From positions 760 to 64,759 of the forward strand of contig CAVTEH010000005.1 of NCBI GenBank assembly GCA_963733635.1: 64,000 nt of DNA. Reading direction: 5' to 3'. Under the pieces are notes generated by a model. The model did not search any database. It was given only the letters and a program-made list of their open reading frames with translations, and was not told the origin of the DNA. Position numbers and translations under genes: made by a program. This document shows, piece after piece, positions 27,810-60,144 of the stretch (position 1 is the first letter of the stretch; each line of letters begins with the position of its first letter). Origin of the DNA: an uncultured Actinomycetota bacterium. Its GTDB lineage: Bacteria > Actinomycetota > UBA4738 > HRBIN12.

Positions 27810-30091
27810 CTATCCCCAGCGCTGACCCAGGATGGCGGCCAGCAGGGCAACGGCGCCGGTCTTGTCGAGCGGCTCGTTGCCGTTGCCGCACTTCGGCGAC
27901 TGCACGCACGAGGGGCACCCGAGGCTGCACGGACACTGGCGGATCGCCTCCAGCGTGGCCCGGAGCCACCGCTCGGCATCACGCGCGCCGCGCTCGGTGA
28001 TGCCGGCGCCTCCCGGATAGCCGTCGTAGATGAAGATCGTCGTGAGCCCGGTATCGGGATGCAGAGGCGTGGACACGCCCCCGATGTCCCACCGGTCGCA
28101 GGTGGCCACTAGTGGCAACAGGCCGATCGCGGCATGCTCGGCGGCGTGGATCGCGCCGGGCACGTCGCGGGGGCCCACGCCGGCACGGTCGAGCACCTCG
28201 CCCGGGATCGTCCACCAGACGGCCTTGGTCTCCAGCTGCGACCGGAGGGAGCGGCAGCGGCACCTCGTCCAGGATCTCGCCGCCGGCCACCGACCTGCGG
28301 ACGTAGCTGGTGACCTGGTTCGTCACGCGCACGTCGCCGAAGCACTGGTCGACGCGACCGACCGTCGACCGCGCGACGATGTCCCCCACCTCGATGTCGG
28401 TGATGTCGCGGGCCTGCGTGTAGTAGTCGGGGTTGGCCTGCGTGACGACGGCGACGCGCTGCACCAGGTCGAGCTCGGCCACCAGGTACTGCTCGCCCAT
28501 GTGCAGGTAGACGGCTCCGGGGTGCAGCGTCGCGTACGCGCGGTGCTCGTCCGCCGTTCCCAGCAGCTCGCCGGTCTCGGCGATCACGATCGAATAGACG
28601 TGCCCTCCGCCCGCGCGGACGTCGACCGTGCGATGGGGTGCCTCCTTGCCGCGATCGTGCCAGGCCTCGCGTCGAGCCACCAGCTCCCCGCGCTCGGTCA
28701 TGCGGTCCACGGCTGCGCCCACGTCTGCGGGCTCGCCGAAGAACCCGAGCTCGGGTTCGCGGAGCGGGAGTTCCCGGGCGGCGCACCGCAGATGCGGCTC
28801 CAGGACGTACGGGTTCGTGGGGTCGATCACCGCGGCTTCGGCGGGACGTTCGAACAGGTCGGTGGGGTGGTGCACGAGGTACTGGTCCAGCGGATCGTCC
28901 TGGGCAACCAGGATCGCGAGCGCGTCGGTGTCCCGGCGACCGGCTCGCCCCACCTGCTGCCACATGGAGGCGCGGGTGCCCGGGTAGCCGGTGAGGACGG
29001 CGGCGTCGAGCGAGCCGATGTCGATGCCCAGCTCCAACGCACTGGTGGATGCGATCGCCAGCAGCTCGCCGTCGGCCAGCTCGCGCTCGATGCGACGCCG
29101 GTCCTCGGCGAGGTAGCCGGCCCGGTAGCTCTTGATGCGCTGCCCGCGTCGCCGGCTCGGCCACCTCTCGGCGGGCGAACTCGGCGAGCAGCTCGGCGGC
29201 TCGCCGGGACCGCGTGAACCCGATCGTGCGGACCCCGTCGTCGGCGAGCCTGCCCATCAGCCACGAGGCCTCGCTCAGCGCGCTGCGCCGTTGCCCCGTG
29301 TCCTCGTCCACGATCGGCGGGTTCCACAGGGCGAAGAGCTTCTCGCCGCGAGGCGACGCGTCGTCCACGATCACCTCGAAGCTGCGTCCGGTGAGCCGCG
29401 TCGCGAGCTCGCCGGGATTGCCGACGGTGGCGCTGGCCAGGCACCACCGCGGGGACCCGCCGTAGTGCGCGATCAGACGCTGCAACCGGCGCAGCACCAT
29501 CGAGACGTGCGAGCCGAACACGCCTCGACACACGTGCGCCTCGTCCACCACCACGATGGACAGCCGGAACAGGAAGTCCGCCCACCGCGCATGATCGGGG
29601 AGCAGGGACAGGTGCAGCATGTCGGGGTTGGTCATGACCAGGTTCGCGTTCTTGCGGATCAGCGGGCGCTCGGCTCTCGGTGTGTCGCCGTCGTAGACGG
29701 CGGCCTTCACCTGGGGGATCTTCAGGCGCGCACGGCGCGCAGCTGGTCGCGTGCGAGCGCCTTCGTGGGGTAGAGGTACAGCGCCGTCGCCTTCGGCCTG
29801 GGTCAATGCCGTCTCGGCGAACGCCGCGTTGTACACCAGCGTCTTGCCGCTGGCCGTTCCCGTGGCCACGATGACGTCGCGACCCTCGCGAAGCGCCGCG
29901 AGGCCGTCCACCTGGTGCGCGTACAACCCGCGGACGCCCTGCAACCCCAGCCGCGACACCAAGAGCTCGGGCAGGTCGCCGGGGAACGGCTCCACCGCGG
30001 GCCGCCGCGCCGGCAACTCCTGCACGTGCACCAATGACGGCGCCACGTCCGGATCCCGGGTCAGTTGCTGCAGGAACGCGCGAGGATCCAC
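27810..30091 (-). CDS. DEAD/DEAH-box helicase with C-terminal DUF1998 (MrfA/SftH-like); frameshifts
   Basis: ATGTASGKT, VVDEAH, LELGIDIG, QQVGRAGR, CPCSLGCPSCVQSPKCGNGNEPLDK. Confidence 0.9.
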
Positions 30092-30104
30092 GCGCGCAAG
30101 CCTT

Positions 30105-31448
30105 TCATGCGGGCCGCCGCTCGACGCTACTGCCCAGCTCGTCGTAGGAGGTTCTGAACCCGTCCCGGAACAACCCTCGAAGCGCGCCCCGGCCACGCAC
30201 CAGCACCCAGGTCCCCAGCAGCAGGTAGACGATGCCGACGCCGATCCGCTCGAGGGCGTGGAGCGACTCGGGCACGATCGCGCCCAGCAGGAACTGGACC
30301 CAGAACAACGAGAAGAGGAACACGGCCTCGCGCAGCGTCATCGAGAGGTTCGAGAGCACCGCGACGGCGAAGAACGACTGCGCCGCCGTCAGGAACAGCT
30401 CCTCACGCTGCACCGCATCCAGCGGCAACCCGTGGAAGCCGCCCGCCGCGATCGCGAACACGATCGGCAGCGTGCCCACCAGCAGCGTCCATTGGTTGAC
30501 CTTGGAGCTGACCAGGGTGCCCAGACCCGCGCTGGTGTTGAGGCGCCACGCGTACAACCCGGCGACGAGCAGCTCCGGCGCCTCGGATGCGAGCGGGGCG
30601 ATCCACTGCACCAGCAGGAACTCGCTAACCCCCAACGCCTCGCCGCTGGCGACCAGGGCCTCGGCGAAGCGTTCGGCCACCAACAGGATCACGACGGCGG
30701 CGAACACCGCGATGGAGATGACCGTGGTGCGTCGTCCCACCGTCGAGAAGGTGCCCACGTAGGCCGCGGGCCCGACCAGGTGCGGCTCTTCAGCCGGCGC
30801 GCGCGAGACGCGGAGCGTGTAAAGCACGAAGATCATCACCAAGATCGCGGAGTCGAACAACGTCACCGAGTCCTTCAAAGGCAACGTCAGCGAATAGATC
30901 GTGGCGACGGCCAGGAACGCGATCTCGATCGAGTTCCGGCGTTCCAACCGGACGCCCTCCCATTTGCCCGACGTAGGCAGCATGCCCTTGCTTCGCAGCC
31001 GGATGAATGCGATGAACACCACCATGGTCCACCCGATGCCGATCAGCAGCCGATTGGCGCCGGTCATGTTGGCCAGGGCCAGCGAGCAGGGCGATTCGGT
31101 GCCCCCGTCGATCGGCAGGCACGCCTCACCCGTCTGCGCGAACGACTGGCCTCCCTTGTACGCGAAGACGAAGTCCACCGCGTACTCGGGCAGCACGGCG
31201 ATGAGGGCCAAGATCGCGATCGCGAGGCCGGCGGAGATGTCCAGCTGTGCCACCTCCGCCCCCCACGACAGCAGGAACGCGGACCCGACGATGGCCAGGC
31301 CGAAGATCAACCCCTCCAGCGGGTGGGGGATGTCGGGATGGGTGAACCGCACCACCAGACCGGGCATCGTGATCAGGAGCGCGGCCAGGATCTGCACGCG
31401 CGAACTGGTCGGATGCACGTCGACGAGTTCGCCCTTCGGTGTCGCCAC
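30105..31448 (-). CDS. CaCA-superfamily (Na/Ca_ex) cation antiporter
   Basis: Alpha-repeat motifs AVLPEYAVD...ANMTGAN and APLASEAPE...LVSSKVNQ; intact 447-aa membrane protein. Confidence 0.85.
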   Translation of the reverse strand: MATPKGELVDVHPTSSRVQILAALLITMPGLVVRFTHPDIPHPLEGLIFGLAIVGSAFLLSWGAEVAQLDISAGLAIAILALIAVLPEYAVDFVFAYKGGQSFAQTGEACLPIDGGTESPCSLALANMTGANRLLIGIGWTMVVFIAFIRLRSKGMLPTSGKWEGVRLERRNSIEIAFLAVATIYSLTLPLKDSVTLFDSAILVMIFVLYTLRVSRAPAEEPHLVGPAAYVGTFSTVGRRTTVISIAVFAAVVILLVAERFAEALVASGEALGVSEFLLVQWIAPLASEAPELLVAGLYAWRLNTSAGLGTLVSSKVNQWTLLVGTLPIVFAIAAGGFHGLPLDAVQREELFLTAAQSFFAVAVLSNLSMTLREAVFLFSLFWVQFLLGAIVPESLHALERIGVGIVYLLLGTWVLVRGRGALRGLFRDGFRTSYDELGSSVERRPA

Positions 31449-31485
31449 GAGTCCCCTTCGCCGTTCAGCCTCTTCGCCTCGGGCA

Positions 31486-31577
31486 GAAGGTCTCGTCCCC
31501 GCGGATGCGGTGAGGCGCCGGACCGCGGTGTCGCGATCGTGATGACGACGTCCTGCTGTTGCGGACTACTCCCCTTC
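31486..31577 (-). ncRNA. yybP-ykoY (Mn2+-sensing) riboswitch
   Basis: Minus strand GAAGG-GGAGTAG-TCC...GGA-CGTCGTCATCACG...CCGG...ACGAGA-CCTTC: P1 GAAGG/CCTTC plus the conserved GGGGAGUAG, GUCAUCAC and GAGACC segments, directly upstream of the antiporter RBS. Confidence 0.8.
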
Positions 31578-31624
31578 GTGCTGGGCGAGCCTATCAAGGT
31601 CTCCAGCGGAGGCAGGGCGGCGAG

Positions 31625-32576
31625 CTATTCGCCCGGCGGTGGGGCTGGGTGGGATGTTCTTCTTCAGCAGCATGGCGTCCTTTGCGGCGTCGGTGAAGAT
31701 CGCCCGCGCCCGAGCCATGTCGAGCGACACGACCGACATGGACCCCGCCGTGCCGGACCCACCGGGCAACACCACGTTCTGGACGTTCTTGACGGGGATG
31801 CTTCGATGCGGTGAACGCCAGCGGCATGATCTCGCCCAACGACATCGTGGTCTCGATGTTCCGCATGCCCGCCCCCAGCCATTCGACCAGCGAGCTCGGA
31901 TCCGAGCGGAAGGCTCTCTGGAAGTTGGCGAGCGCGGCCAGGAAGAGCCGGCCGCCGTTCTCCTGACGGGCGAAATCACCCATCTGCAGATCGTGGCGAG
32001 TGCGCGCGAACGCGAGCGCGTCCCTGCCCGAGAGGTCCTGGACACCCGGCTGGAAGTCGGCCCGCGCGTACGAGTCGCTCATGGCGAACGGGACGTTCAT
32101 CGTGAGGCCGCCCACCGAGTCGATCATGTCGGTGAAGCCCCAGAAGGTGGTGATGGCCCAGTAGTCGATCTGCACATGCGCGAGGTTCTCGACGGTCTGC
32201 ACCATCAGCGCTGGGCCACCGTAGAACAGCGACGAGTTGATCTTGCCGCTACCGCGGCCGGGGATCGGCACGTACGAGTCGCGGGGGATGCCCGACCATG
32301 ACGGACCGTTTCTTGGCCGGGTTCACGAACACCAGGTGGATCGAGTCGGCGAGCGAATGCATCACGTCGTCGCCGGGGCGAGCGCCGCTGCCGACCATGA
32401 GCAGCACGATGGGCTTGGAGCCGGCGAGTGAAGGGAGTGAAGCCCGCGTGCGCCTTGCCCACGGCCAGCCCCACGCCTTGGGCTCTGGCCGTCACCGGAC
32501 CGCTCAGACCACCGAGGGCGGAACCGGCCGTCCACGCGAACAGCGCCAAGACCGCGAACACCGCCGCGCGCCTCAC
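31625..32576 (-). CDS. LCP (LytR-CpsA-Psr) family protein; frameshifts, ends approximate
   Basis: TM anchor; ADSIHLV, GIPRDSYV, KINSSL..GG, ALAFARTRH, GDFARQENG. Confidence 0.85.
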
Positions 32577-45367: not shown

Positions 45368-46088
45368 CTAGCCGCCCACGGTGGAGGCGCCGTCGATCCC
45401 GTCGCCCGGCAGGCCACCGGAGGTTTCGCCCACCACCGCATCGCGCAAGGCCCTCTCCGAGGGAGCGCTGGCCAGTGCCAAGACTTCGTCGCCGGCCGAC
45501 AGGACGGTCTCGGGCTGTGGGATGACGACGTGGCCTTCACGCAGGATGCCCACCACCGCGGCATCGGCGGGGAGCCGCAACTCGTAGATGGCCTTGCCGA
45601 CCGAAGGAGAACCGTCGGGCAAGGTCATCTCGACGATCGACACGCGTCCACCTTCCAGGCGGATCAGACGCACCAGGTCGCCGACCGTGACGGCCTCCTC
45701 GACCATGGCCGTCAGGATGTGCGGCGGCGACACAGCGGCGTCCACGCCCCACTGCTCGGTGAACAGCCACTCGTTCTTCGGGTGATTCACGCGCGCCAGC
45801 ACCCTGAGGCACGGCGAATTCCTGCTTGGCCAGCAACGAGGTGACCAGGTTGTCCTCGTCGTCACCGGTGGCCGCGACCACCACCTCGGCGTTCGCCATG
45901 TCGGCCCCTTCCAGGACCGATGGCTCGCACGCGTCCCCGAAGACGACGGTGACGCCGGGCGCCCAGCTCCGAAGCTTGTCCGACAGGTCCCGTTCCTGTT
46001 CCACGAGCGACACGTCATGTCCGCGCTCGGCCAGGTCGACGGCCAGATGCCGTCCCACCGCTCCGCCGCCCGTCACGATGACCTTCAT
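45368..46088 (-). CDS. trkA: TrkA/KtrA-type RCK K+ regulatory protein (CeoC-like; one frameshift)
   Basis: GGGAVG, GDACEPSVLE, ATGDDEDNLV, ARVNHPKNEWLF; TrkA-C domain. Confidence 0.9.
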
Positions 46089-46751
46089 CTAGGCTGCTCT
46101 CCGGCGGGCGCGGCGATCATGTCGTCCAGGGTGTCGGTGCCGTCCTTCGTGAGCATGACGACCAGGAAGTCGCCGGCCTGCAGCGAGCTCTCGTCGGTCG
46201 GGAGGAATCCGCCTCCGCCCCGGGAGACGCCGGCGATCAGGATCTTGCCCTCCACGTTGAGCCCGGACGGCTTGGTGCCGACCAGATGCGCCGGTACCGG
46301 CGACGCGCATGCGCAACAGGTCGCCGCCCCCCAACGACTCCCGGATCTCCGCCCGGTCGTGGAAAAGCATGAGCTGGATCTGCTTGATGCCCCACGTGGT
46401 GGTCGCCACGGTCGGGATGTTGAGTCGCTCGTAGATCTCGGCGCGTCGTGGGTCGTAGATGCGCGCGATGACCTTGGGCACGTGGTACATCTCGCGCGCC
46501 ACCCGTGCCGACACGATGTTGGAGTTGTCACCGCTCGAGACCGCCACGAAGGCGTCGGCGTCCTTGATTCCGGCTTCCTCCAGCACGTCGCGATCGAACC
46601 CCAAGCCCACCACGGTCTTGGTCCCCTCGCCCGGCTGATACCGATAGAACGCCTCGGGATCCTTGTCGATCATCGTCACGTCGTGCTCACCGACCAATTG
46701 GCTCGACAGCTCCGAGCCGACCCGGCCGCAGCCCATGATGATGACCTTCAT
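46085..46751 (-). CDS. trkA: TrkA/KtrA-type RCK K+ regulatory protein (CeoB-like; one frameshift)
   Basis: MKVIIMGCGRVG, GFDRDVLEEAGI, SSGDNSNI, ARIYDPRRAEIYERL. Confidence 0.9.
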
Positions 46752-46803
46752 GACGGCGTAGCCTACCCATCCTCGTTTGACCTGGCACCGTACCGAGCGC
46801 AAC

Positions 46804-47313: not shown

Positions 47314-47353
47314 GACGGGTCTTGCCGCACGGCCGTGGCACGATTGGCCCGAC

Positions 47354-48805
47354 ATGGGGCAGGGATCGTCCGACATCGAGAGCCGTCCGTGGCGCGGTCT
47401 CACGCTCCGCGGGGTGTTCTTCGCCGTCGTCTCGCCTGCGGCGGCAGCGGTGGCCTCGATCCCGTTCGGGCGATCCGGGACCCGCGTCGGCCATCTCGCT
47501 GTTCCTGCTGGCGATCGTGATCGCGGCGGTGGCGGGTGGCCTGTACGCGCGGGCTCATCGCCGCCCTGCTCTCGTCCTTCGCGCTGCCGTTCCTCTTCGG
47601 ATCGCAGCGGTTCCGCCTGCGGCTGGACGGCACCGAGGAGATCGTGACCGCCATCGTCTTCTTGTCCGTAGCGGTGGTGGTGGGATCTGCTCGTGGGCGG
47701 CGCCGCCGACGAGCGTGCCAGGGCGGCCCGGCACGAACGTGAGTCCCGATTGCTCGGAACCCTGTCGTCCACGCTGCTGTCGGGCGAGGTGCCCGACCGC
47801 GTCCTCGATGACTTCGCTTCAGTGCTCTTGGAGCCCTTCGGCCTGTCGAAGTGTGAGATCACGGTCGAGCTGGACGGCACGCAGCTGGTCGCACGCTCAT
47901 CGCGCCCGGAGCTCGAGTCCGGAGGGCCCGACGCGGTCGTTCCGTTGGTGGCGGGGACGGTCGCGTTCGGCACGCTGCGGGTCGAGCGGCCCCGAGGCCG
48001 TCGCGCCCTCAACGCCGACGAGCTGCTGCTGCTGGAGGCCGCCGCCAGGCAGGCCGCGGCGGCGCTGGACCGTGCTCGCTTGGACGCCCGCGCCCGCATG
48101 GCTCAGCTCGACGCCGAGACCAACCAGCTGCGTGCCGCCATGTTCAGCTCGGTGACCCACGACCTGCGCACGCCGTTGGCATCGATCAAGGCGGGCGTCA
48201 CCAGCCTGCTCGACCCCAGCGTCGAGTACGACACCGTCCAGGAGACCGAGCTGCTCACCACGATCTTGGAGGAGACCGACCGGCTGAATCGATTGGTGGG
48301 CAACATCTTGGACCTGGCGCGGATCCGCGCCGGTGCCCTGAGCCCGGTCCGCAGCGACTCGTCGTTGGAGGAGACCTTGGAAGCGGTCGTGGCCCGCATG
48401 CGGCCGCGCATCGACCTCGTGACCGTGGACCTGACCATCAGCGACGACATGCCCGACGTGCCGGTCGACGGCGTGCAGATGGACCAAGTGCTCACGAACC
48501 TGCTGGAGAACGCGGCGCGCTATGCACCCGCCGGCTCCACGGTGCGGGTCTCGGCGCAGGTGGTCGGTGACCGGGCGCAGGTTCGCGTGGTCGATCAGGG
48601 CCCCGGGGTTCCGGAAGACGACCGCGAGCGGGTGTTCGAGGCGTTCTATCGCGGCGAGCGGAGTCCGGAGATGCCGGGCAGCGGGCTCGGGCTCGCGATC
48701 GCCAACGCTATCGTGACCGCCCATGGCGGCCGCATCTGGATCGACGATGCGAGTCCGGGAGGCACGGCGGTAGTGTTCGAGATCCCGATCGAGGGGCCCC
48801 GATGA
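47354..48805 (+). CDS. KdpD-like sensor kinase lacking the N-terminal KdpD and Usp domains (frameshifts)
   Basis: DUF4118-like TMs, GAF-like segment, SVTHDLRTPLASIK, QVLTNLLENA, GSGLGLAIA. Confidence 0.9.
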
Positions 48806-49488
48806 GTTTGGTGCTGGTGGTCGATGACGAACCACAGATCCGCCGCGCCTTGCGCACCAGTCTGGAGGCACACGGCTACCAGGTCTCCACGGTCGGTACG
48901 GGCGAGGAGGGTGTGGTGGGTGCGGCGGACCAGGATCCGGATCTCCTGCTCCTCGACCTCGGCCTTCCCGACATCGATGGCACCGAGGTGATCCGGCGCG
49001 TCCGAGGGTTCTCCGATGTGCCGGTCATCGTGCTCTCGGTGCGCGAGAGCCAGAGTGACAAGGTGGCGGCCCTCGATGCCGGCGCCGACGATTACGTCAC
49101 GAAGCCGTTCGGTATGGAGGAGCTGCTCGCACGAGCACGAGCGGCGATGCGTCGCAAGCAACCGGAAGAACCCGCCATGCCGGTGCAGACCTTCGACGAT
49201 CTCGAGGTGGATCTCGCTCGCAGGCTGGTGAGCCGGGGCGGCGAGCAGGTGCACCTGACGCCCACCGAATACGGCCTGTTGGAGGCGCTGGTGACGAACC
49301 CTGGCAAGTTGCTCACCCACCAGTGGCTCTTGCGGAAGGTCTGGGGCCAGGGCTACGGCACCGAAACCACCTACCTCCGGACCTACGTCCGCGCGTTACG
49401 CAAGAAGCTGGGCGACGACGCACAGGCGCCCGGCCTCATCGTCACCGAGCCCGGCGTCGGATATCGCTGGGTCGCCGAGGCGGACTGA
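48802..49488 (+). CDS. Second KdpE-like OmpR-family response regulator
   Basis: VLVVDDEPQI, GADDYVTKPFGMEELLAR, VHLTPTEY, GKLLTHQWLL, TEPGVGYRW; intact 228 aa. Confidence 0.92.
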   Translation: MSLVLVVDDEPQIRRALRTSLEAHGYQVSTVGTGEEGVVGAADQDPDLLLLDLGLPDIDGTEVIRRVRGFSDVPVIVLSVRESQSDKVAALDAGADDYVTKPFGMEELLARARAAMRRKQPEEPAMPVQTFDDLEVDLARRLVSRGGEQVHLTPTEYGLLEALVTNPGKLLTHQWLLRKVWGQGYGTETTYLRTYVRALRKKLGDDAQAPGLIVTEPGVGYRWVAEAD

Positions 49489-49492
49489 TCCG

Positions 49493-51842
49493 ATGGTCGA
49501 ACGCGACTCCCAAAGTGGCGGCTTCATCGACGGTGTGAAGCGCCTCGTCGTCGGCAGAGCGTTGGCGAGCCACAAGGCCGACCACCAGCTGTTGCCGAAG
49601 TTCTTGGCGCTCCCGGTCTTCTCGTCCGACCCGTTGTCCTCGGTTGCCTACGCCACCGAGGAGATGATGCTGGTCCTGGTGCTGGCGGGGGCCGGCGCGT
49701 TGGCGTTCAAGATTCCGCTCGGCATCGCCGTGGCACTGCTGCTCACGATCGTGGTCACCTCGTATCGCCAGACCGTCCGGGCCTATCCGCGGGGCGGGGG
49801 CTCATACATCGTGGCTCGCGAGAACCTGGGCACGATCCCCGGGCTGGTCGCCGGCGCGGCGATCCTGACCGACTACGTCCTGACGGTGGCGGTCAGCATC
49901 ACGGCCGGCACGGTGGCGATCGCATCGGCGGCGCCGTCGGTCGAAGATCTCCGGGTGCCGATCGCGATCGGCTTGGTCATGCTCGTGATGCTGGCCAACC
50001 TCCGAGGCGTGAAGGAAGCCGGCACGTTGTTCGCCATCCCGACCTACGGGTTCGTCGCGATCGTCGCCTTGACCCTGGTGGTCGGCTTCGCTCGATGCCT
50101 CGGCGGCTGTCCGGTGGCGGCGACGGCCGACCTGGAGGTGCACGCAGAGACCGGGATCACGGTGTTCCTCTTGCTGCGTGCCTTCTCGTCGGGAGCGACC
50201 GCGCTGACGGGCGTCGAGGCGATCGCCGACGGGGTGCCGGCGTTCCGGCGGCCGCAGTCGCGCAACGCTGCGGCGACGTTGGCCATCATGGGCGCCATGG
50301 CCGTGACCCTGTTCCTCGGGCATCACCGTGATGGCCCAGCTGCTCCAGGTGCGTGTCGATGAGGAGATCGCAGCGTCGAACTCCGTGCTGTCCCAGATCG
50401 GCAGGACGATCTACGGGGACGGCATCTGGTTCATCCTGCTGCAGGTGTTCACGGCCGGCATCCTGATCCTGGCCGCCAACACCGCGTTCCAGGACTTCCC
50501 GCAGGCTCTCGTCGATCCTGGCGCGGGACGGGTTCCTGCCTTCGCAGTTCAAGAACCGCGGGGACCGACTCGTGTTCTCGAACGGGGTCGTTGATCCTGG
50601 CCGGACTCGCCGCGCTGTTGATCTGGATCTACGACGCGAACCTCACGCGGTTGATCCAGCTCTACGTCGTCGGAGTGTTCACCGCCTTCACGTTGTCGCA
50701 GTCGGGCATGGTGCTTCGCTGGTTCCGGCTGAAAGGGCCTGGGTGGCAGCGGAGCGCGCTGGTCAACGGCATCGGCGCATTCACGACCGGCGTCGTGCTG
50801 GTCATCGTCACGATCACGAAGTTCTCTCGGGGCGCGAAGGTCGTCGTCGTGGCCATCCCGATCATGGTGCTGATCTTCCTGGCGATCCACCGCCACTACC
50901 GTCGCGTGCGAGAGGTGCTCGGCAACGCAGGGTCTCGGCCCGGACCAAGGCCACGGGTTCGGCGCTGTTCCTGGTCGACGATCTCGGCCAGGCCACGCTC
51001 GACGCCATCGCCTACCTCCGAGCGGTGCGTCCTGAGCGCGTCCATGCCCTGTACGTCGGCCCCGCCGACCGGTTCGACGAGGTGGCGGCCGGCTGGGAAG
51101 CTGGCGGCTCCGCGGATCGGCACGCTCGAGCGTCTCATCGGCGCGGACCGCCACCTGGTGAGGGCCGTGCGCGCGCGGATCCGCTCGATCGAACGTCGGC
51201 CGGAGGACTTCGTGACGGTGATGATCCCCGAGGCCCTCACCCGGCGCACGCTGTGGCAGTTCCTGGTGCACCGCGAAGCGTTCCTGTTGAAGACCGCGCT
51301 CCTGTTCGAACCGGGCGTGGTCGTGACCGACATCCCCCTGGTGCCGGGTGACGATCGGCCTCGCCGACCGACGGGCGGCCGGTCGAACCCGAACGGAGCG
51401 TGGTGTTGATCCCCGTGTCGGGGGTGCATGACGCCACCGTCCGCGCGGTCGTATACGCGCGCTCCCTCCGACCCGTCTAGGTGGAGGCGATCTTCCTGAC
51501 GACGGATCTGGACGAGGTGCGCGGGTGTGATCGAAGACTGGTACGAGCGGGACCTGGACGTCCCGCTCGATCCTGGTGGAAGCCCCGTTCCGTGACATGG
51601 GTGCTCCGCTGCTGGACGAGATCCGGACCTACACCGCGCGTGGGGACACGATCGTGACGGTGGTCCTGCCCGAGCTGGTGCCCGGCACTGGTGGGGCAAC
51701 GCGCTGCACAACCAGACCGGCCTGTTCTTCAAGCGGCTCCTCCTGTTCGAGCCCGACGTCGTGGTCACCAGTGTGCCCTTCCACCTGCGCCTCGCCGGAA
51801 ACACCTGCGCCGCCATCCGCGACGGGGCCGATGGCGCCGTAG
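49493..51842 (+). CDS. KimA-like (KUP/APC) K+ permease 1 with two tandem cytosolic domains (frameshifts; in-frame TAG at 51478)
   Basis: FSSDPLSSVAYATEE, SYRQTVRAYPRGGGSY, ALTGVEAIADGVPAF, ANTAFQDFP; C-terminal WWGNALHNQT. Confidence 0.85.
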
Positions 51843-51855
51843 GCTGTCGCTCCGG

Positions 51856-54237
51856 ATGGCCAACACGACACCGCTCGCGGAACGTTCGACCGGCATCACC
51901 AAACGTCTCCTGCTGGGCAGGGCGTTCGCGAGCAGCAAGATCGAGCACACGCTGCTGCCGAAGATCCTGGCCTTGCCGGTCTTCGCCTCCGACGCGTTGT
52001 CCTCGGTCGCCTACGCCACCGGCGAGATCTTGATCGTGCTGTTCCTGGCGTCCTCTGCGCCGCAGAACTACGTGCATCCCGATCGCGGTCGCGATCTCGC
52101 TGCTCATGGCGGTCGTCGTGGTGAGCTACCGGCAGACGGTCCGTGCCTACCCGAGCGGTGGCGGCGCCTACATCGTGTCCAAGGACAATCTGGGTGCTTT
52201 CGCGGGACTGGTGGCTGCGGGCGCCTTGCTCTTCGACTACATGATGACCGTGGTGGTCTCGATCGTGGCAGGGGTGTTCGCGATCGGGTCGGCCATCCCG
52301 TGGGCGAACGAGCACAAGGTGGTGCTGGCGATCGGATTCGTGATCTTCGTGACGCTGGCCAACCTGCGGGGGGCTCGCGAATCCGGAACCCTGTTCGCGA
52401 TCCCCACGTACGGATTCGTCCTCTCGATCGCGGTGTTGGTCGGACTCGGCTTCGTGCAGTGCCTGGGCGGTTGCCCGCAGGTGCCGGTCGACGTCGAACC
52501 CCTCCACGATGCCGCGACCGCGGCCGGGGCCGTCGGCGTGTTCACGCTGCTGAAGGCGTTCTCATCGGGAGCCACTGCCCTGACCGGGGTCGAGGCGATC
52601 TCCAACGGCGTCCCCGCGTTCCGCCGGCCGCAGGCCCGCAACGCCGCCGAGACCCTCGCGATCATGGGCGCGATCGCGATCGCGATGTTCATGGGCATCT
52701 CGTGGCTGTCCACGCACGTCGAGGGCGTGATCGCTAGCGAGGAACGTTCGATCGTGGCGCAGATCGCGCTGGCGGTGTTCGGCGAAGGCAGCATCGGGTT
52801 CTTCTTCGTGCAGTTCTTCACGGCGGCGATCCTGATCCTGGCTGCCAACACCGCCTATCAGGACTTCCCACGGCTCGCCTCGATCCTGGCCCGAGACCGG
52901 TACATGCCCAGGCAGTTCGTCAACCGCGGCGACCGGCTGGTCTTCTCCAACGGCGTGATCGTGCTGGGTCTCCTGTCGTGCGTGATGATCTACATCTTCG
53001 ATGCCGACCTGAACTCGCTGATCCACCTGTACGTGGTGGGTGTGTTCACCTCGTTCACGCTGTCGCAATCGGGCATGATCAAGCACTGGATCTCCGAGGG
53101 TCGCAAGGGCGCCGCGGCGATGCCCGGGTGGCGTCGCTCGATCGTGATCAACATCGTCGGCGCGGTGGTGACCGGCGTCGTCCTGGTGGTCGTCATCGCC
53201 TCGAAGTTCCGCGACGGCGCCTGGTTGTCGATCCTGATCATGGGGCTGCTGGTGCCGGTCTTCTATTCGATCCATCGCCACTACACGAACGTCCGTGTGC
53301 AGGTCGGGGCGTCGGACCGTGCGCCCCGGGGCAGCCTCGGCCGAGCACGTCGTCCTGTTGGTGCGACAGCTCGACGCTGCGACTGCCGAGGCGCTCGGCT
53401 ACCTGCGTTCGTTCCGTCCCGACGACGTGCGGCCGGTCACTCCGGCGCGCAGCGGGGTGATCGATCCACGGATGCAGTCGCAGTGGCGCACCTTCGCCGG
53501 GAACGGCGTGCCGGACCTGATCCCGCTGACCGGACACGGCTTGTTCTCCAGCGTGCGGGAAGTACATCCAGACGATCCCGCGTGAGCCGGACGACTTCGT
53601 GACCGTGATCGTGCCGGAGTCGCTGCAGCCGCAGGGCCTGTTCCGTTACCTCCTGCGCAGCCGCGATCTGATCCGCCTGAAGGGGAGCCTGCTGCGCATC
53701 CCCAACGTCGTGGTGACCGACGCACCGGTGGTGGAGGCTCAGGGCGCACCGATCGGGGTGGACGCGCGCCCGTTGATCCCCCGGCGCACCGTGAGCCTGG
53801 TCCTGGTCAGCTCCGTGAACGACGTCTCGATCCGCGCCGTCAACTACGCCCGAGCGCTGGAAGCGAGCGAGACCCGTGCGATCTACTTCGACATGGATCC
53901 CGAGGAAGCGCACACGCTCGAGGTCGACTGGTTCGACGCGGGCATGGAGGTGCCGCTCGACATCGTGGAGGCGCCGTTCCGCGATCTGACCGCGCCGATG
54001 CTGGAGGAGGTCCGCCGCTACACCGAACGGGAAGACACCGTGGTCAACGTGATCCTGCCCGAGTACATCGTGTCGAAATGGTGGCAGCTGCCCCTGCACA
54101 ACCAGACCGCGCTGTTCGTGAAACGCTTGTTCCTGTTCGAAGAGCGCACCCTGCTGACCAGCGTCCCCTACGTCTTGGATGCCGCGGCCGTGGAGATGCC
54201 CGAACCGGCCGCCGCGTCGAGGAAGGAGCACCCATGA
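51856..54237 (+). CDS. KimA-like (KUP/APC) K+ permease 2 with two tandem cytosolic domains (frameshifts)
   Basis: FASDALSSVAYATGE, SYRQTVRAYPSGGGAY, ALTGVEAISNGVPAF, ANTAYQDFPRL; C-terminal WWQLPLHNQTA. Confidence 0.88.
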
Positions 54238-54713
54238 ACATCCGCCCTGCCACCAAGGACGACGACGAGTTCCTGAAGACCATGCTGTACGAAGCGGCCC
54301 GGTGGAACCCGGACTGGCCCCGCGAGCCCATGGAAGAGGTCCTGGACGAGCCCACCCTGCGCCGCTACCACGAGGATTGGGGTCGTGATGGTGACGGCGG
54401 GGTCATCGCCGAGATCGAGGGCATGCCGGTGGGCGCCGTCTGGTACCGGCTCTTCACCGAGGACGAGCCCGGGTTCGGGTTCGTGGACGAGAAGACGCCC
54501 GAGGTCTCGGTGGCGGTGGCGCCGTTGCATCGGCGGAAGGGCATCGGCGGCACGTTGCTGCGCGCGGCCATGGTGCAGGCCCGCGAGGAGGGCTACCGGT
54601 CGCTCTCGCTCTCGGTGGCCGTGCACAACCGCTCACGAATGATGTACCAGCGCGTGGGATTCGAGCAGGTCGGCGAGCGGGGCGAGAACTGGACGATGCT
54701 GGTCAACCTCTAG
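54234..54713 (+). CDS. GNAT family N-acetyltransferase
   Basis: VAVAPLHRRKGIGGTLL acetyl-CoA motif; ATGA overlap with permease 2. Confidence 0.9.
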   Translation: MNIRPATKDDDEFLKTMLYEAARWNPDWPREPMEEVLDEPTLRRYHEDWGRDGDGGVIAEIEGMPVGAVWYRLFTEDEPGFGFVDEKTPEVSVAVAPLHRRKGIGGTLLRAAMVQAREEGYRSLSLSVAVHNRSRMMYQRVGFEQVGERGENWTMLVNL

Positions 54714-55382: not shown

Positions 55383-55560
55383 GGGGTTCGAATTCCGGTC
55401 CGGGCTCGGGAATATCGAAACGGTACCAGTGCGTTCAGTGGCCTCCGAGAGGGGGTATCGACCCGTGGGCCTGGTCGAACCGCAGGCGAGCGGGTGGTAC
55501 CGTCCCCGCGAACGGGCCCGGCTCGACAGATGCTCCGCGACCCGTGAAGGTGCCCCGGCC

Positions 55561-58084
55561 ATGGCCAACAAGACGCTCGTGGTCGTCGAATCGCCCGCCA
55601 AGGCGAAGACGATCGAGAAGTACCTGGGCGGCGACTACGCCGTCCGAGCCTCCTATGGCCACATCCGGGACCTGGGCAAGGGGTTCGGCGGGCTGGGCGT
55701 CGACATCGAGCACGACTTCGTGCCCGACTACGTGGTGCCCGAGGACTCGGCCCGCCACGTCGGCGAGCTGAAGAAGGTCATGAAGCTGTCCGGCGACGTC
55801 ATCCTGGCGACCGACTACGACCGCGAAGGGGAGGCCATCGCGTTCCATGTCGCCTCGCTGCTTGGGGGTCGACCCAGCGCGAGCCAAGAGGGTGACGTTC
55901 ACCGAGATCACGCGCGACGCGATCCTGGCGGCGTTCCAGGAGCCGCGCGAGATCGACCTGCAGCTCGTTCGACGCCCAGGAGGCCCGTCGCATCCTCGAC
56001 CGCTTGGTGGGGTTCCGCATCTCGCCGATCCTGTGGAAGCGTGTCCGCCCTGGCCTGTCCGCCGGCGTGTGCAGTCGGTGGCCGTGCGGCTCATCGTGGA
56101 GCGCGAGCGCGAGATCCGCGCGTTCAACCCCGTGGAGTACTGGAGCGTCGACGTTCGCCTCACGCCCGACGACATCGGAGCAGCCGTTCACCGCCCGGCT
56201 CAACCAGATCCCCGAGGGCAAGCTCGCCGCCTCGCCCGACAAGAAGGGCGTGCTGCTCGCCGCCGAGGCCGACGCCGCCGACCCACGTCGAACGGCTGGG
56301 CCGGGCCGCCTATCGCGTCACCAACGTCGAGCGCAAGGAGCGCAAGCGTTCCCCCTCGCCGCCGTTCACGACCTCGACCCTGCAACAGGAAGCCGCGCGC
56401 AAGCTGGGGTTCGGCGCGCGCAAGACGATGTCGGTGGCCCAGCGCCTGTACGAAGGCATCACGCTGCCGGGCGAGGGCAGCGTCGGGCTCATCACCTACA
56501 TGCGAACCGACTCGGTCACGATCAGCGACACGGCGCTGCGCGAGATCGCCGAGCTGGTGAAGACCGACTTCGGCAAGGAGTACTCACTGGCCGAGTTCCG
56601 CCGGTACAAGACGCGGTCTCGCAACGCCCAAGAGGCGCACGAAGCGGTGCGGCCCACCAGCGTGATGCGCTCCCCCAGCCGCATGGCCAGCGTGCTCGAC
56701 CACGACCAGCTCAGGCTCTACACGTTGATCTGGCAGCGCACGATGGCCACGCAGATGGCCGACGCCCGCTTCAACCAGGTGGGGGTGGACATCGCCGCGG
56801 TCGTGGCCGACCGCAGAACGGCGATGCCGGGGACGTCACGTACGGGTTGCGCGCCACGGGCCAGACCATGATCTTCGACGGGTTCATCCGGGTCTACAAG
56901 GAAGGCCGAGACGAAGGTCCCGACGAGGACGCCGAGAAGACGCTTGCCCGAGCTCACCGCCGAGCAGCTCCTGCGCATGCTCGAGGTGGTGCCCGAGCAG
57001 CACTTCACCCAGCCACCGCCGCGCTACTGCGAAGCCTCGCTGGTCAAGACGCTGGAGGAGCTCGGCATCGGCCGGCCTTCCACCTACGCGTCGATCATCG
57101 ACACGATCCAACGGCGTCAGTACGTGACGCTGGAGGACAAGCGCTTCACGCCCACCGACACGGGCGAGGTCGTCACCGACAAGCTGATCGAGCATTTCCC
57201 CGACGTCGTCGACGTCACTTTCACCGCGTTCATGGAGAAGGAGCTCGACGACATCGCCGTGGGTGAGCTGGGCAAGGTCCAGATGCTCCACGAGTTCAAC
57301 GGCCCGTTCGAACGCGCGTTGGAGAAGGCCGACCACGCGTTCGAGCGGTTCAGCGAGGAGCTGGACGAGGAATGCCCGCTGTGTCCCACCGAGGGCCGTG
57401 ATCCCGGCAACGCTCGAGGTCAAGCTGGGGCGCTACGGCAAGTTCGTCGGGTGCACGAACTACCCGGACTGCCGGTACATCCGCAACATGGACGGCAGCG
57501 TGCGTCCCGAGCCCGAGATGCTCGACGAGACCTGCCCCGAGTGCGGCAAGCAGCTCCAGAAGAAGGTGGGCCGCTTCGGTCCGTTCACCGGATGCAGCGG
57601 CTACCCCGACTGCAAGTACATCAAGAAGGACCCGCCCGTCTCGACCGGCGTCACGTGCCCGCAGTGCGGCCAGGGCGAGCTGATCGAGAAGCGCAGCCGG
57701 TTCGGCACGATGTTCTACAGCTGCAGCCGCTACCCCGACTGCGATTGCGCCGTGGGCAACCCGCCCGAGAAGGACCGCCCATGTCCCGAATGCGGCTCGT
57801 TGCTGCTCCGCCGCCCCAAGTCGCTGCGATGCTGGGGCTGCGGCGCCGAGCTCGATCTGGAGTCTCAACGTGACGAAGTCCGGCGACGTCGCAGGCCGAG
57901 ACCGCCGCACGCGAGGCGAAGGCGGTGGCCAAGGCCGCCCGCGCCGCCGCCAAGAAGCCGACAGCCAAGAAGCCGCCAGCCAAGAAGAAGCCGCACGACG
58001 AAGAAGAAGACCAACGCGCCAAGAAGCGGACGGCGAAGACGACGTCGGCGGCTCGCAAGAAGCCGGCGGCCGACGGAGGGCTAG
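55561..58084 (+). CDS. topA: DNA topoisomerase I with Zn-ribbon repeats and Lys-rich tail (frameshifts)
   Basis: [49 protein letters not shown], several CxxC ribbons. Confidence 0.95.
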
Positions 58085-58090
58085 GCGCCC

Positions 58091-60144
58091 GTGGCTTCCG
58101 TCGCCGACGAGGTTGCCGCGCTCCGCGGAACCCGTGCGGCGACACTGAAGGATCTGCTCACCCACCCGGCGTTCTCGCGGCTGCTCGCCGCGATGAGCAT
58201 CTCCTCGCTGGGCGATTGGGTGGGGTTCGTGGCGGTGACCTCGCTGGTCACCACCCTTGTCCGGGTCCGTCGCGAAGGCCGGGTTCGCGATCAGCGCGGT
58301 GATGGTGGCCCGCATGCTGCCGGCGATCCTGTTCGGGCCGATCGCGGGAGCCTTGGTCGATCGGGTCGACCGCAAGCAGATCATGATCGTCGCCGACATC
58401 GGACGTGGCGTCATGTACGCGTCGATGGCGTTCATGGGGCAGCTCTGGGCGATCTTCCTGTTGTCGTTCGCGATCGAGTGCCTGTCGCTGCTGTGGTCGC
58501 CGGCGCGCGACGCATCGCTCCCGAACATGGTGCCGCGCCGCCAACTCGCCAACGCGAACTCGATCGGCCTGGTCAGCACCTACGGCACGTTGCCGCTGGG
58601 CGGGGCCGTCTTCGCGGCGCTCACGGCCTTCAGCTCGTGGATCGGCGGGCGCGTCGCGTTCCTCGGGCGACCGTCCCGAGACGCTGGCGCTGCTGCTGGA
58701 CGCCGGCACGTTCGCCTTCTCGGCGTTCATGGTGAGCCGCATCGAGTTCCCTGCCCCGATCCGTGGGCTCACGGGCCGGTTCGATCTGTCGCGCGTGTGG
58801 CGCGACGTCGTCGACGGCGTGCGGTTCCTGCGGGAGGATTCGATCGCCTCGGCGATGACGGGCGGCATCGTCATCGCGTTCGCGGCGGTCGGGGCGGTGC
58901 TGGCGCTGGGGCCGATCTTCGTGGGTTCGCTCGATGCCGACGCGGCCGCGTGGGGGGTCATGGTCACGGCGTTCGGCGTGGGCATGTTCCTGGGCATGGC
59001 CACCGCGAACCAGCTCAACAAGATCGTGGAACGAGACGTGGTCTTCACGTGGGCCTTGTTGGCGGCGGCCGGGACGCTGTTCGTGCTCGCGGCGATGCCC
59101 AATCTCGCTCTGGCCGCGGTCGTCGCGGTGTGGCTCGGGGCCTTCTGCGGCCTGGCGTGGGTGAGCGGGTACACGCTGCTGCAGGAGAACGTCGAGGACG
59201 AGTTCCGGGGGCGGACCTTCGCTTCTCTCACCACCTTGTCGCGGCTGGGACTGTTCCTCAGCCTCACGGTGTTCCCTATCCTGTCGAGCGTCTATGTCGA
59301 CTACGACTTCAACATCGGTGGGCAACGCATCGACCTGTCGGGTCCGCGCCAGGCGATGTGGACCGCCGGCGCGCTGGCCGATGGTGGCCGGCCTCAACAC
59401 CCGTCGTCTGCTCAAGCGCCACCGATTGTCCCGGCCCGCAACCTCTCACGCTCGTGCCCAAGCTGAAGCGGCCCCCGGCCACCGGGGTCTTCATCGCCTT
59501 CGAGGGCGTCGAGGGATCGGGCAAGGGCACCCAGATCGAACGGGCCGAGGAGTACCTGCGCGCGCAGGGCGCCGACGTGCTGGTCACGCGCGAGCCCGGG
59601 CGGCACCGAGCTGGGGGAGAAGGTGCGCCAGATCCTGCTCGACCCCGGCACCGGCACGCTGGACGCGCGCAGCGAGGCGTTGTTGTTCTCGGCGGCGCGG
59701 GCCCAGATGGTCTCGAGCATCATCCGGCCCGCGCTGGCCGACGGCAAGGTCGTGATCTGCGACCGATACGTCGACTCCTCCCTCGCCTATCAAGGGTGGG
59801 CGCGAGGACTGGGCGAACAGGACGTGCTCAACCTGAACACGTGGGCCACCCAGGGTCTGTTCCCGGACCTGGTGGTGCTGTTGCACCTGGAGCCCGAGCG
59901 GGGCCTGCTGCGATCGACCGAGGCTCCCGACCGTCTGGAGATGGAAGGACAGAGCTTCCATGCCAAGGTCGCGGACGCCTACCTGAAGATCGCCGAAGAG
60001 CACCCCGAGCGCTTCGTCGTGGTGGACGCGGACCGCACCCCCGACGAAGTGTTCGCCGACGTGCGGGAGGCGTGCAGAAGGCCGTCGGATCGCGACGACG
60101 GCCGACGGTGGACGTCCGAGCATCCGGCGGCAGCTTGCCGATAG
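58091..60144 (+). CDS. tmk: MFS transporter fused to thymidylate kinase (frameshifts)
   Basis: About 12-TM MFS (GALVDRVDRKQIMIVAD) followed by FIAFEGVEGSGKGTQ, VTREPG, VICDRYVDSSLAYQG; no separate tmk start seen. Confidence 0.85.

Follow-up and report, generated by a model that had tools for sequence, protein, structure and literature searches.

Tandem genes for predicted KimA-type potassium symporters with a doubled cytosolic tail in an uncultured actinobacterial lineage

The window analysed here, a 64,000-nucleotide stretch of DNA from an uncultured Actinomycetota bacterium, contains two tandem genes for KimA-like permeases, g1 (upstream) and g2 (downstream), accompanied by genes for a KdpD-like sensor kinase, a KdpE-like response regulator, two half-size TrkA/RCK proteins on the opposite strand and a GNAT acetyltransferase (Table 1). 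The kinase lacks the N-terminal and Usp part of KdpD. In relatives, a KdpD-like kinase gene is likewise found upstream of the permease gene, and a GNAT acetyltransferase gene is found 3′ of it. The two permease genes and the genes for the kinase and the response regulator probably constitute one operon, in which the adjacent KdpDE-like system would probably turn on the expression of g1 and g2 under K+ scarcity. Neither g1 nor g2 is an intact open reading frame in the window, and the homology of both was established after reading across the frame changes.

Table 1. Features of the locus around g1 and g2, in coordinates of the window
Feature	Position	Strand	Evidence and remarks
Pair of half-size TrkA/RCK genes (TrkA_N, TrkA_C)	45368..46802	-	frameshifted
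KdpD-like sensor kinase	47322..48805	+	DUF4118-type membrane part, GAF, HisKA, HATPase_c; frameshifted near 47690
KdpE-like OmpR-family response regulator	48802..49488	+	intact; ends 4 nt before g1 start
g1, predicted KimA-type K+/H+ symporter paralogue, "upstream" clade	49493..51842	+	~780 aa, read across frame changes
g1, non-triplet indels	near 50317, 50501, 50589, 50921, 51098, 51366, 51519, 51568, 51682, 51790	+	comparison with clean orthologues
g1 unit 1, KimA-type cytosolic domain, copy nearer the membrane (…ALFLVDDLGQATLDAIAYLRAVRP … DFVTVMIPEALTRRTLWQFLVHREAFLLKTALLFEPGVVVTDIPLV)	50932..51382	+	alignment with homologues
g1 unit 2, distal KimA-type cytosolic domain, IPVSG and HWWGNALHNQT	51388..51787	+	H579, N580 and Q581 kept; S582 replaced by T
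g2, predicted KimA-type K+/H+ symporter paralogue, "downstream" clade	51856..54237	+	791 aa as reconstructed
g2 unit 1, duplicate of the cytosolic domain, nearer the membrane	53340..53757	+	split by frame change at ~53560; no KimA counterpart
g2 unit 2, distal cytosolic domain with LPLHNQT	53758..54186	+	counterpart of KimA 464-603, i-Evalue 9.7e-10
GNAT acetyltransferase	54234..54713	+	ATG overlaps g2 stop codon (ATGA)

KimA was the only protein matched in a phmmer search of the PDB (6s3k/8b70/8b71, E = 1.9e-122), which agrees with the earlier note, made from the letters of the same DNA, in which both proteins were described as KimA-like. In this comparison, residues 16-492 of g2 align to KimA 6-470, the transmembrane (TM) core, and residues 633-770 align to KimA 464-603, the cytosolic domain, with residues 493-632 (unit 1) lacking a counterpart in KimA. 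The K+-coordinating residues of KimA, namely Asp36, Tyr43, Thr230 and Tyr377 (PMC10284832), are invariant in g1, g2 and 102 homologues, as are the vestibule residues D117, Y118 and E233. AA_permease_2 is the only Pfam domain in the two proteins (E = 6e-28 in g1), apart from a weak K_trans match in g1. From their sequences, g1 and g2 are predicted K+/H+ symporters of the KimA subfamily (KUP family, APC/LeuT fold).

The likeness to KimA (YdaO) of Bacillus subtilis (PDB 6S3K/8B70/8B71) covers the 12-TM LeuT-fold core, the K+-site and vestibule residues, and the five-stranded alpha/beta cytosolic domain with its H-N-Q-S/T motif, which corresponds here to unit 2; in KimA, this C-terminal domain is composed of a five-stranded parallel sheet with four flanking helices (PMC6994465). 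The earlier note was also correct in its account of the Bacillus protein as a dimeric K+/H+ symporter with one c-di-AMP-binding cytosolic domain per protomer (PMC6994465, PMC10284832). That single domain is swapped in the KimA homodimer, whereas g1 and g2 carry two domains per chain, the canonical domain being separated from TM12 by ~140 additional residues, and lie behind a KdpDE-like two-component system with no riboswitch detected.

After the 12-TM core, each of the two proteins has two consecutive KimA-type cytosolic domains, and the motifs previously quoted for them could all be found in g1 and g2: …VILPEYIVSKWWQLPLHNQTALFVKRLFLF… in g2 and HWWGNALHNQT in g1 for unit 2, and VMIPEALTRRTLWQFLVHREAFLLKTALLF in g1 and VIVPESLQPQGLFRYLL… in g2 for unit 1. 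Unit 2, with its alignment to the KimA domain and its conserved H-N-Q-T, is the canonical cytosolic domain, as had been proposed. The two units of g2 are similar to each other in BLASTP (E = 0.003, in register), and the profiles of unit 1 and unit 2 from the 102 homologues align end to end over 126 columns (hhalign probability 97.2%, E = 3.3e-11). The unit 1 profile further matches window positions 51044-51364 (G000:C5:51803-52123) in g1 (E = 1e-19) and both unit positions in distant proteins. An AF2 model of unit 1 from the closest clean orthologue (pLDDT 91.8) shows a beta-alpha x4-beta topology, and in the PDB Foldseek ranks the three KimA entries highest (E = 2.8e-5 to 1.9e-3, TMq 0.62-0.70), followed by PPAT, a likeness reported for the KimA cytosolic domain itself (PMC6994465). 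The suggested similarity of unit 1 to the KimA cytosolic fold was thereby confirmed in both the profile comparison and the structural search, and unit 1 is, on this profile and model evidence, a diverged internal duplicate of unit 2 with the same fold. It stems from an old internal duplication that placed the new copy between TM12 and the original domain, evolves faster and has lost the H-N-Q-S/T motif, which is missing from unit 1 in the alignment with homologues; the distal unit 2 is orthologous to the one cytosolic domain of KimA. Pfam contains nothing for either unit beyond a chance-level DUF2948 match (E = 0.12), and neither the full orthologue nor the tail matched any NCBIfam family.

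The architecture of TM core, unit 1 and unit 2 was found in 80/80 related species loci and, with the architecture of each family judged from 1-3 genomes, in at least 11 families of the phylum (f1-f6, f13, f15, f49, f50 and f63), which rules out an oddity of one genome or genus and largely tells against the earlier note, in which a common tandem form had been named as grounds for refutation. A single domain was found in families f7, f11, f12, f14, f24, f30, f31, f35, f37-f39, f41, f51, f53, f57, f59 and f67, and roughly half of the sampled Actinomycetota with KimA possess the double tail. A search with the tail returned 1095 matches, most of the best 120 being ~790 aa long and the others shorter, and exactly two units were present in 21 of the 23 full-length representatives among the top 150. 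No description of a two-domain KimA was found in the literature searched; the double tail marks a widespread form of a known transporter that had gone undescribed there.

Homologues of the two genes fall into three paralogue clades, each with support 100 and all double-tailed, and g1, which is 78% identical to the upstream gene of the related locus L043, is placed in a clade with support 100. Since g1 and g2 are only 50% identical and belong to separate clades with support 100 each, a recent tandem duplication is ruled out and the duplication is ancient. Only the two tandem genes matched in the source genome, in which a third paralogue was not found; relatives have a divergent copy. Among the 80 loci, ~23 contain two genes in direct tandem and ~20 contain a divergent second copy. 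In many of them, the g2-type gene stands alone within the flank examined, so that the g2-type protein, for which heterodimers with the g1-type had been suggested, probably functions independently of the latter.

The single-domain KimA-like permeases of other Actinomycetota have the same core and the same distal domain but differ in their single cytosolic domain, with open frames of 610-750 aa from stop to stop, and occur in families nearly all of which possess a diadenylate cyclase (DAC). Rv2690c, located beside ceoB/ceoC in Mycobacterium tuberculosis, is presumably a member of this single-domain group. The two KimA-like proteins listed for Streptomyces venezuelae with 39-42% identity (PMC10117811) are further examples.

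Unit 1 is the fastest-evolving part of these proteins, with g1-g2 identity of 34%, against 51% in unit 2 and 59% in the TM core, and mean identity among orthologues of 57%, compared with 71% each for unit 2 and the TM core; the g2 tail is 83% identical to that of the clean orthologue P0001. This divergence, together with the loss of the H-N-Q-S/T motif, would suit a mere structural spacer, in which a decayed duplicate lengthens the linker from TM12 to the canonical domain and has neither a ligand nor a partner of its own. Nevertheless, unit 1 was kept in three ancient paralogue clades and at least 11 families, has 13 strictly and 18 almost strictly conserved positions (among them E26, G29, Y30, R35, W58, P101-E102 and K123), and has a confidently predicted fold, and we therefore regard a mere spacer as doubtful. 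For the same reasons of orthologue identity, invariant residues and old clades, the word "degenerate" in the earlier description of unit 1 goes too far, although its reading as a diverged copy with the same fold is supported.

The half-size TrkA pair lies within the same locus and adjoins KimA-type genes in relatives. No TrkH/KtrB pore could be found in the source genome or in 30 relatives of its order, so that the RCK pair is without its classical partner in these 31 genomes. Both observations would be compatible with the previously suggested docking of the RCK proteins on unit 1, by which the pair would gate KimA-type permeases. However, single-domain loci of other families share this divergent neighbourhood, with the half-size TrkA pair adjoining the permease in 11 of 13 of them, and the association is thus independent of unit 1. 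Moreover, the RCK pair might act on some other channel or antiporter encoded elsewhere. The suggestion gains no specific support from the neighbourhood, and we consider unit 1 unlikely to be the docking site.

In Bacillus, a c-di-AMP (ydaO) riboswitch is known before kimA, and c-di-AMP switches off the KimA that has been studied. Rfam revealed no RNA element in the whole window at gathering score, and a riboswitch of this type before the operon was dropped as a candidate. In the 31 genomes of the genus and order (the source genome and 30 relatives, which include 16 high-quality genomes), neither a DAC domain nor a c-di-AMP riboswitch was detected (0/31 for each), and both searches picked up their positive controls. 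In the phylum, 212 of 301 genomes carry DAC, none of them from families f1-f6. By raw tally, which would tentatively link the double tail with the absence of DAC, it occurs in 13/72 double-domain and 53/60 single-domain genomes, counts that come from few independent lineages with the architecture extrapolated by family. The c-di-AMP pocket of KimA is formed by Pro479, His579, Asn580, Gln581 and Ser582, plus Arg337 (PMC10284832). Unit 2 of both proteins has kept H579, N580 and Q581, with Thr at 582, and g2 has also kept Arg337, which might point to c-di-AMP binding by unit 2 and inhibition of transport on the pattern of B. subtilis KimA, with unit 1 as a second site. Nevertheless, Arg337 is replaced by Ser in g1 and in 40/102 homologues, and Pro479, kept in g1, is replaced by L in g2 and by L or F in all 102 homologues. 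With no diadenylate cyclase, c-di-AMP riboswitch or TrkH in the order of the source genome, c-di-AMP control of g1 and g2 is unlikely, and inhibition through unit 2 with a second site in unit 1 is very improbable. The lineage appears to be without c-di-AMP, and the earlier premise of c-di-AMP binding is thus doubtful here. The retention of H579, N580 and Q581 despite no known cyclase could be due to an unrecognised cyclase or to another ligand.

In comparison with clean orthologues, g2 contains three 1-nt insertions (near 52074, 53310 and 53560), and g1 has an in-frame stop at 51478-51480 besides ~10 non-triplet indels. Most of these indels are insertions of one base, the pattern that consensus errors would leave. 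Frame breaks also occur throughout the genome, whose completeness is 55% (3.05 Mb, 10 contigs) compared with 92-98% in congeners of similar size, and the essential gene topA is likewise split across frames. Protein identity to orthologues is 76-91% in every frame segment of g1 and g2. Given the genome-wide breaks, the split topA and this persisting identity, the frame breaks most likely stem from errors in the assembly consensus rather than from gene decay. That g1 and g2, or at least g1, are real pseudogenes left by the decay of a redundant K+ uptake operon, as the number of indels and the stop codon might suggest, is highly unlikely with all K+-site residues intact, and a small residual chance of real decay is left chiefly for g1, which has ~10 indels and a stop compared with three indels in g2.

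An AF2 model of the whole two-unit tail (pLDDT 89.4, pTM 0.89) shows beta-alpha repeats, and its top Foldseek matches are KimA entries. The best match covering both units is the tandem universal stress protein (USP) 7mq5 (301 columns, TM 0.53/0.56). Both lobes of cation-chloride cotransporters (CCC) are also matched, namely those of KCC2 7d14, NKCC1 9c0g and the KCC-1 CTD 6vw9, with probability 0.97-1.00 and TM 0.39-0.47 and with no sequence similarity. Tandem USPs (e.g., PDB 7MQ5) resemble the tail in forming an intramolecular pseudo-dimer from two alpha/beta units; g1 and g2 differ from them in the fusion to a transporter and the lack of a Pfam Usp match. The Usp profile of Pfam had no match at E ≤ 10 on either unit and none on the full proteins, and the USP ATP motif G-x2-G-x9-G-S/T was not seen on reading the sequence by eye. 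The CCC (SLC12; KCC2 7D14, NKCC1 9C0G, Caenorhabditis elegans KCC-1 CTD 6VW9 and the prokaryotic CCC 3G40, cited in PMC6994465) resemble g1 and g2 in that an APC-superfamily transporter is followed by two USP/Rossmann-like lobes. Their C-terminal domains consist of an inner and an outer lobe, of which the inner lobe binds ATP/ADP in KCC1 (PMC8280820). However, the membrane core of g1 and g2 is of KimA type and not of CCC type, with no detectable sequence similarity between the two groups, and the large insertions and phospho-regulatory sites of the CCC lobes are absent from the tails of g1 and g2. The likeness in architecture may be convergent.

By analogy with tandem USPs or the inner and outer lobes of CCC, the two units would pack in cis as a rigid pseudo-dimer, a proposal based on the pTM value and on structural matches in Foldseek whose TM-scores are moderate (0.39-0.56). 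Such a pseudo-dimer would take the place of, or add to, the domain pair formed between subunits in Bacillus KimA, and the cytosolic module beneath the membrane domain would gate transport upon a signal other than c-di-AMP, such as an adenine nucleotide or a partner protein. Taken as a whole, we have good, though not full, confidence that g1 and g2 are anciently duplicated genes for double-tailed KimA-type symporters, with a cis pseudo-dimer tail, non-c-di-AMP gating, KdpDE-like control and frame breaks that stem from the assembly. A more specific proposal, which we put forward as speculative, is that in lineages that lost c-di-AMP the duplicated KimA tail would act as a cis pseudo-dimer of CCC/tandem-USP type that senses ATP/ADP or the orphan half-size TrkA (CeoB/CeoC-type) RCK pair.

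For both proton-coupled K+ uptake by KUP-family proteins and its regulation by c-di-AMP, KimA serves as the structural model, and a large, old and so far undescribed branch of the family bears two predicted regulatory domains. Annotations of this branch do not go beyond "APC family permease" and "amino acid transporter", and its genes would be better called K+ transporters than amino-acid permeases; the cytosolic domain, for which Pfam and NCBIfam have no profile, merits one of its own. Far from being peculiar to the source genome, the double tail is the usual form in many uncultured actinobacteria, among them the lineage studied here, and its architecture parallels the two-lobed tail of the eukaryotic cation-chloride cotransporters. 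By raw counts, the branch is found mostly in lineages without diadenylate cyclase, which makes KimA-type regulation possible without c-di-AMP. If the more specific proposal holds, regulated K+ uptake in a large uncultured part of the phylum would run mainly through a K+/H+ symporter with a nucleotide- or RCK-responsive two-lobed tail.

Two consecutive genes could be read on the plus strand between 49400 and 54300 when all three plus frames were considered, an upstream gene (g1) and a downstream gene (g2), which are listed with their neighbours in the table below. Pfam recognized AA_permease_2 alone in the proteins, and the database labels for such proteins are "amino acid transporter" or "APC family permease". 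A sequence search of the PDB returned B. subtilis KimA (6s3k, 8b70, 8b71) as the sole relative (E = 1.9e-122), with residues 16-492 of the g2 product aligned to KimA 6-470 and residues 633-770 to KimA 464-603. The residues that coordinate K+ in KimA, Asp36, Tyr43, Thr230 and Tyr377 (PMC10284832), were invariant in g1, g2 and 102 homologues, as were the vestibule residues Asp117, Tyr118 and Glu233. Since KimA is the only PDB relative and the K+-site residues do not vary, the products of both genes are, on sequence grounds, KimA-type K+/H+ symporters.

Features of the window around the two permease genes
Feature	Position	Strand	Remark
Half-size TrkA gene pair	45368-46802	-	
KdpD-like kinase gene	47322-48805		
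Upstream permease gene (g1)	49493-51842	+	start ATG at 49493, 4 nt past the stop of the response-regulator gene
Downstream permease gene (g2)	51856-54237	+	begins MANTTPL...
GNAT acetyltransferase gene	54234-54713	+	ATG overlaps the g2 stop codon (ATGA)
topA	55429-58100		

Both genes are interrupted in the assembly, and the breaks were located by DNA comparison of each gene with a clean orthologue. Against the gene of the homologue P0001 (related locus L001), g2 carried one inserted base at each of three sites (near 52074, 53310 and 53560) and also two in-frame length differences; against the upstream gene of another related locus (L043), g1 showed about ten non-triplet indels and an in-frame stop at 51478-51480. 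Each frame segment of both genes translated at 76-91% identity to orthologues, the assembly itself (3.05 Mb, 10 contigs) is 55% complete while congeners of the same size are 92-98% complete, and topA in the same window is likewise split; together these point to consensus errors in g1 and g2, not gene decay. In this window of about 68% G+C, many genes are split across reading frames and most are broken by single-base indels, for instance topA, the kdpD-like gene and the trkA pair, so that any ORF-based reading of the assembly needs frameshift-tolerant methods.

Residues 493-632 of the g2 product, the membrane-proximal cytosolic domain (unit 1), have no counterpart in KimA. The order of elements is identical in unit 1 and the distal unit 2, namely strand, helix, strand, helix, strand, helix, strand-PE, long helix and strand. 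BLASTP aligned the two units of g2 in register (E = 0.003), profile-profile alignment over the 102 homologues joined them end to end (97.2% probability, E = 3.3e-11), and the unit 1 profile matched both positions of distant proteins with similar scores. An AF2 model of unit 1 from a clean orthologue, built on a 27-sequence alignment, gave five strands alternating with helices (pLDDT 91.8, pTM 0.86). Its three best PDB matches were KimA entries (E = 2.8e-5 to 1.9e-3, TMq 0.62-0.70), which bears out the structural part of the earlier note, that unit 1 shares the KimA domain fold. Phosphopantetheine adenylyltransferases ranked next, and these were named as structural neighbours of the KimA domain by the authors of the KimA structure (PMC6994465). 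As sequence, profile and model evidence all point to a copy, the objection that unit 1 lacks structural similarity to that domain fails.

The two copies have changed to different degrees. At the positions of the KimA c-di-AMP pocket, unit 2 keeps His579, Asn580 and Gln581, with Thr in position 582, and unit 1 reads R-S-R-D or H-R-E-A at the place of this motif. Mean identity among orthologues was 57% for unit 1 and 71% for both the TM core and unit 2; g1 and g2 are 34% identical in unit 1, 51% in unit 2 and 59% in the TM core. By these alignments unit 1 is the fastest-changing part of the protein, yet 13 of its positions are invariant and a further 18 nearly so.

The 301-residue tail was modelled by AF2 with pLDDT 89.4 and pTM 0.89, and the latter value, spanning two domains, points to a fixed mutual arrangement of the units in the model. 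KimA entries came first among the structure matches of this model and covered one unit; the matches covering both units were mouse KCC2 (7d14), the tandem universal stress protein 7mq5 (301 columns, TM 0.53/0.56), human NKCC1 (9c0g) and the C-terminal domain of C. elegans KCC-1 (6vw9). C-terminal domains of cation-chloride cotransporters (CCC) have two USP-like lobes, one inner and one outer, the inner lobe of KCC1 binding ATP/ADP (PMC8280820), and the single KimA domain has been likened to a prokaryotic CCC tail by the KimA authors, in whose Bacillus dimer the two domains make one ten-stranded sheet (PMC6994465). Whereas the domain pair of Bacillus KimA lies between two chains, that of the double-tail proteins is predicted within one, so that units 1 and 2 would pair inside a single chain.

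A search with the g2 tail matched 1095 proteins out of 8000 scored candidates; the best 120 of them were mostly 775-795 aa, others being shorter, and nearly all spanned 94-99% of the tail. In a locus survey with one genome per species, 166 stretches encoded a relative and 80 loci were kept, all 80 of which contained TM core, unit 1 and unit 2. The kept loci came from uncultured Actinomycetota MAGs, except for two bins labelled otherwise. Two double-tailed genes stood in direct tandem, as in the window, at about 23 of the 80 loci, and about 20 held a second, divergent copy. A tree of 101 proteins resolved three old paralogue clades with support of 100 each: an "upstream" clade that contains g1, a "downstream" clade that contains g2, and a "divergent" clade. 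Every one of them is double-tailed, and outside the three lie more distant proteins from other families that also have the double tail; therefore the domain duplication is older than the gene duplications. The genome studied here has the two tandem genes only. The third ancient paralogue, absent from it, was seen in relatives (L001:2906-5344, L002:1-1578 and L003:5492-7735, all on the minus strand), divergent from two-component genes and directly adjoining the TrkA pair.

Across the phylum, an even sample of 301 genomes was surveyed, with architecture read on inspected representatives per family, and the unit 1 profile matched 133 of them. Two domains were found in families f1-f5 (the order of this genome), f6, f13, f15, f49, f50 and f63, which together account for about half of the sampled genomes that carry KimA, and one domain in f7, f11 (mostly), f12, f14, f24, f30, f31, f35, f37, f38, f39, f41, f51, f53, f57, f59 and f67. 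Some f11 proteins (at G150:C9:5034-5885 and G094:C304:51488-52390) each show a pair of adjacent matches that both resemble unit 2, so the cytosolic domain may have been duplicated a second time, independently, in this family. When the 150 best cluster representatives from a library of 1.8 billion proteins were examined, 23 had the full membrane core, 21 of these with exactly two units. Some representatives are far longer than 790 aa (P0225, 960 aa; P0162, 1041 aa), one of these two having four partial domain-profile matches and the other about 280 residues past unit 2, and further tail variants may exist. That the tandem form is already common, as the earlier note had considered, thus holds within a large part of Actinomycetota but not for the studied family members or the literature; no description of a two-domain KimA was found in the literature searched, and the cytosolic domain is without a model in Pfam or NCBIfam.

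A KdpD-like kinase gene, in which the N-terminal part (KdpD and Usp) is missing, and a KdpE-like regulator gene directly precede the permeases, which suggests induction at low K+, and this kinase-regulator-permease arrangement recurs in relatives. Because the acetyltransferase start overlaps the g2 stop, the kinase, regulator, g1, g2 and GNAT genes appear to make up a single operon; in relatives, too, the permease is followed by a GNAT gene. The idea that unit 1 docks the neighbouring RCK proteins found no support, since the TrkA pair also adjoins single-domain KimA-type loci of other families in 11 of 13 cases, and the adjacency thus does not single out unit 1. None of the 31 genomes of the order, this one included, yielded a TrkH/KtrB pore, so that RCK proteins and KimA-type permeases could conceivably be linked in function. 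Rfam gave no element over the whole window at gathering score; a yybP-ykoY (Mn2+) riboswitch sought at 29800-31700 drew a blank there even at E <= 1, and assembly indel errors might hide a real one.

In Bacillus, c-di-AMP inhibits KimA, with the cytosolic domain as its main binding site (PMC10284832). Neither a diadenylate cyclase (DAC) domain nor a c-di-AMP riboswitch was detected in this genome and 30 relatives of its genus and order, 16 of these relatives being of high quality (0 of 31 in total), which makes c-di-AMP control of the permeases unlikely and leaves the earlier c-di-AMP premise unsupported for unit 1. Of 14 control genomes, 11 had the DAC domain, as did 212 of the 301 genomes of the phylum. 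By hand count it occurred in 13 of 72 genomes of double-form families and 53 of 60 of single-form families, only a hint, with few independent lineages involved, that its absence is tied to the double form. Conservation of the H-N-Q motif of unit 2 despite the missing DAC is unexplained. That an entire order of actinobacteria has apparently lost c-di-AMP signalling is noteworthy on its own account, and the double tail gives a known transporter a variant architecture that is widespread, ancient and so far undescribed.
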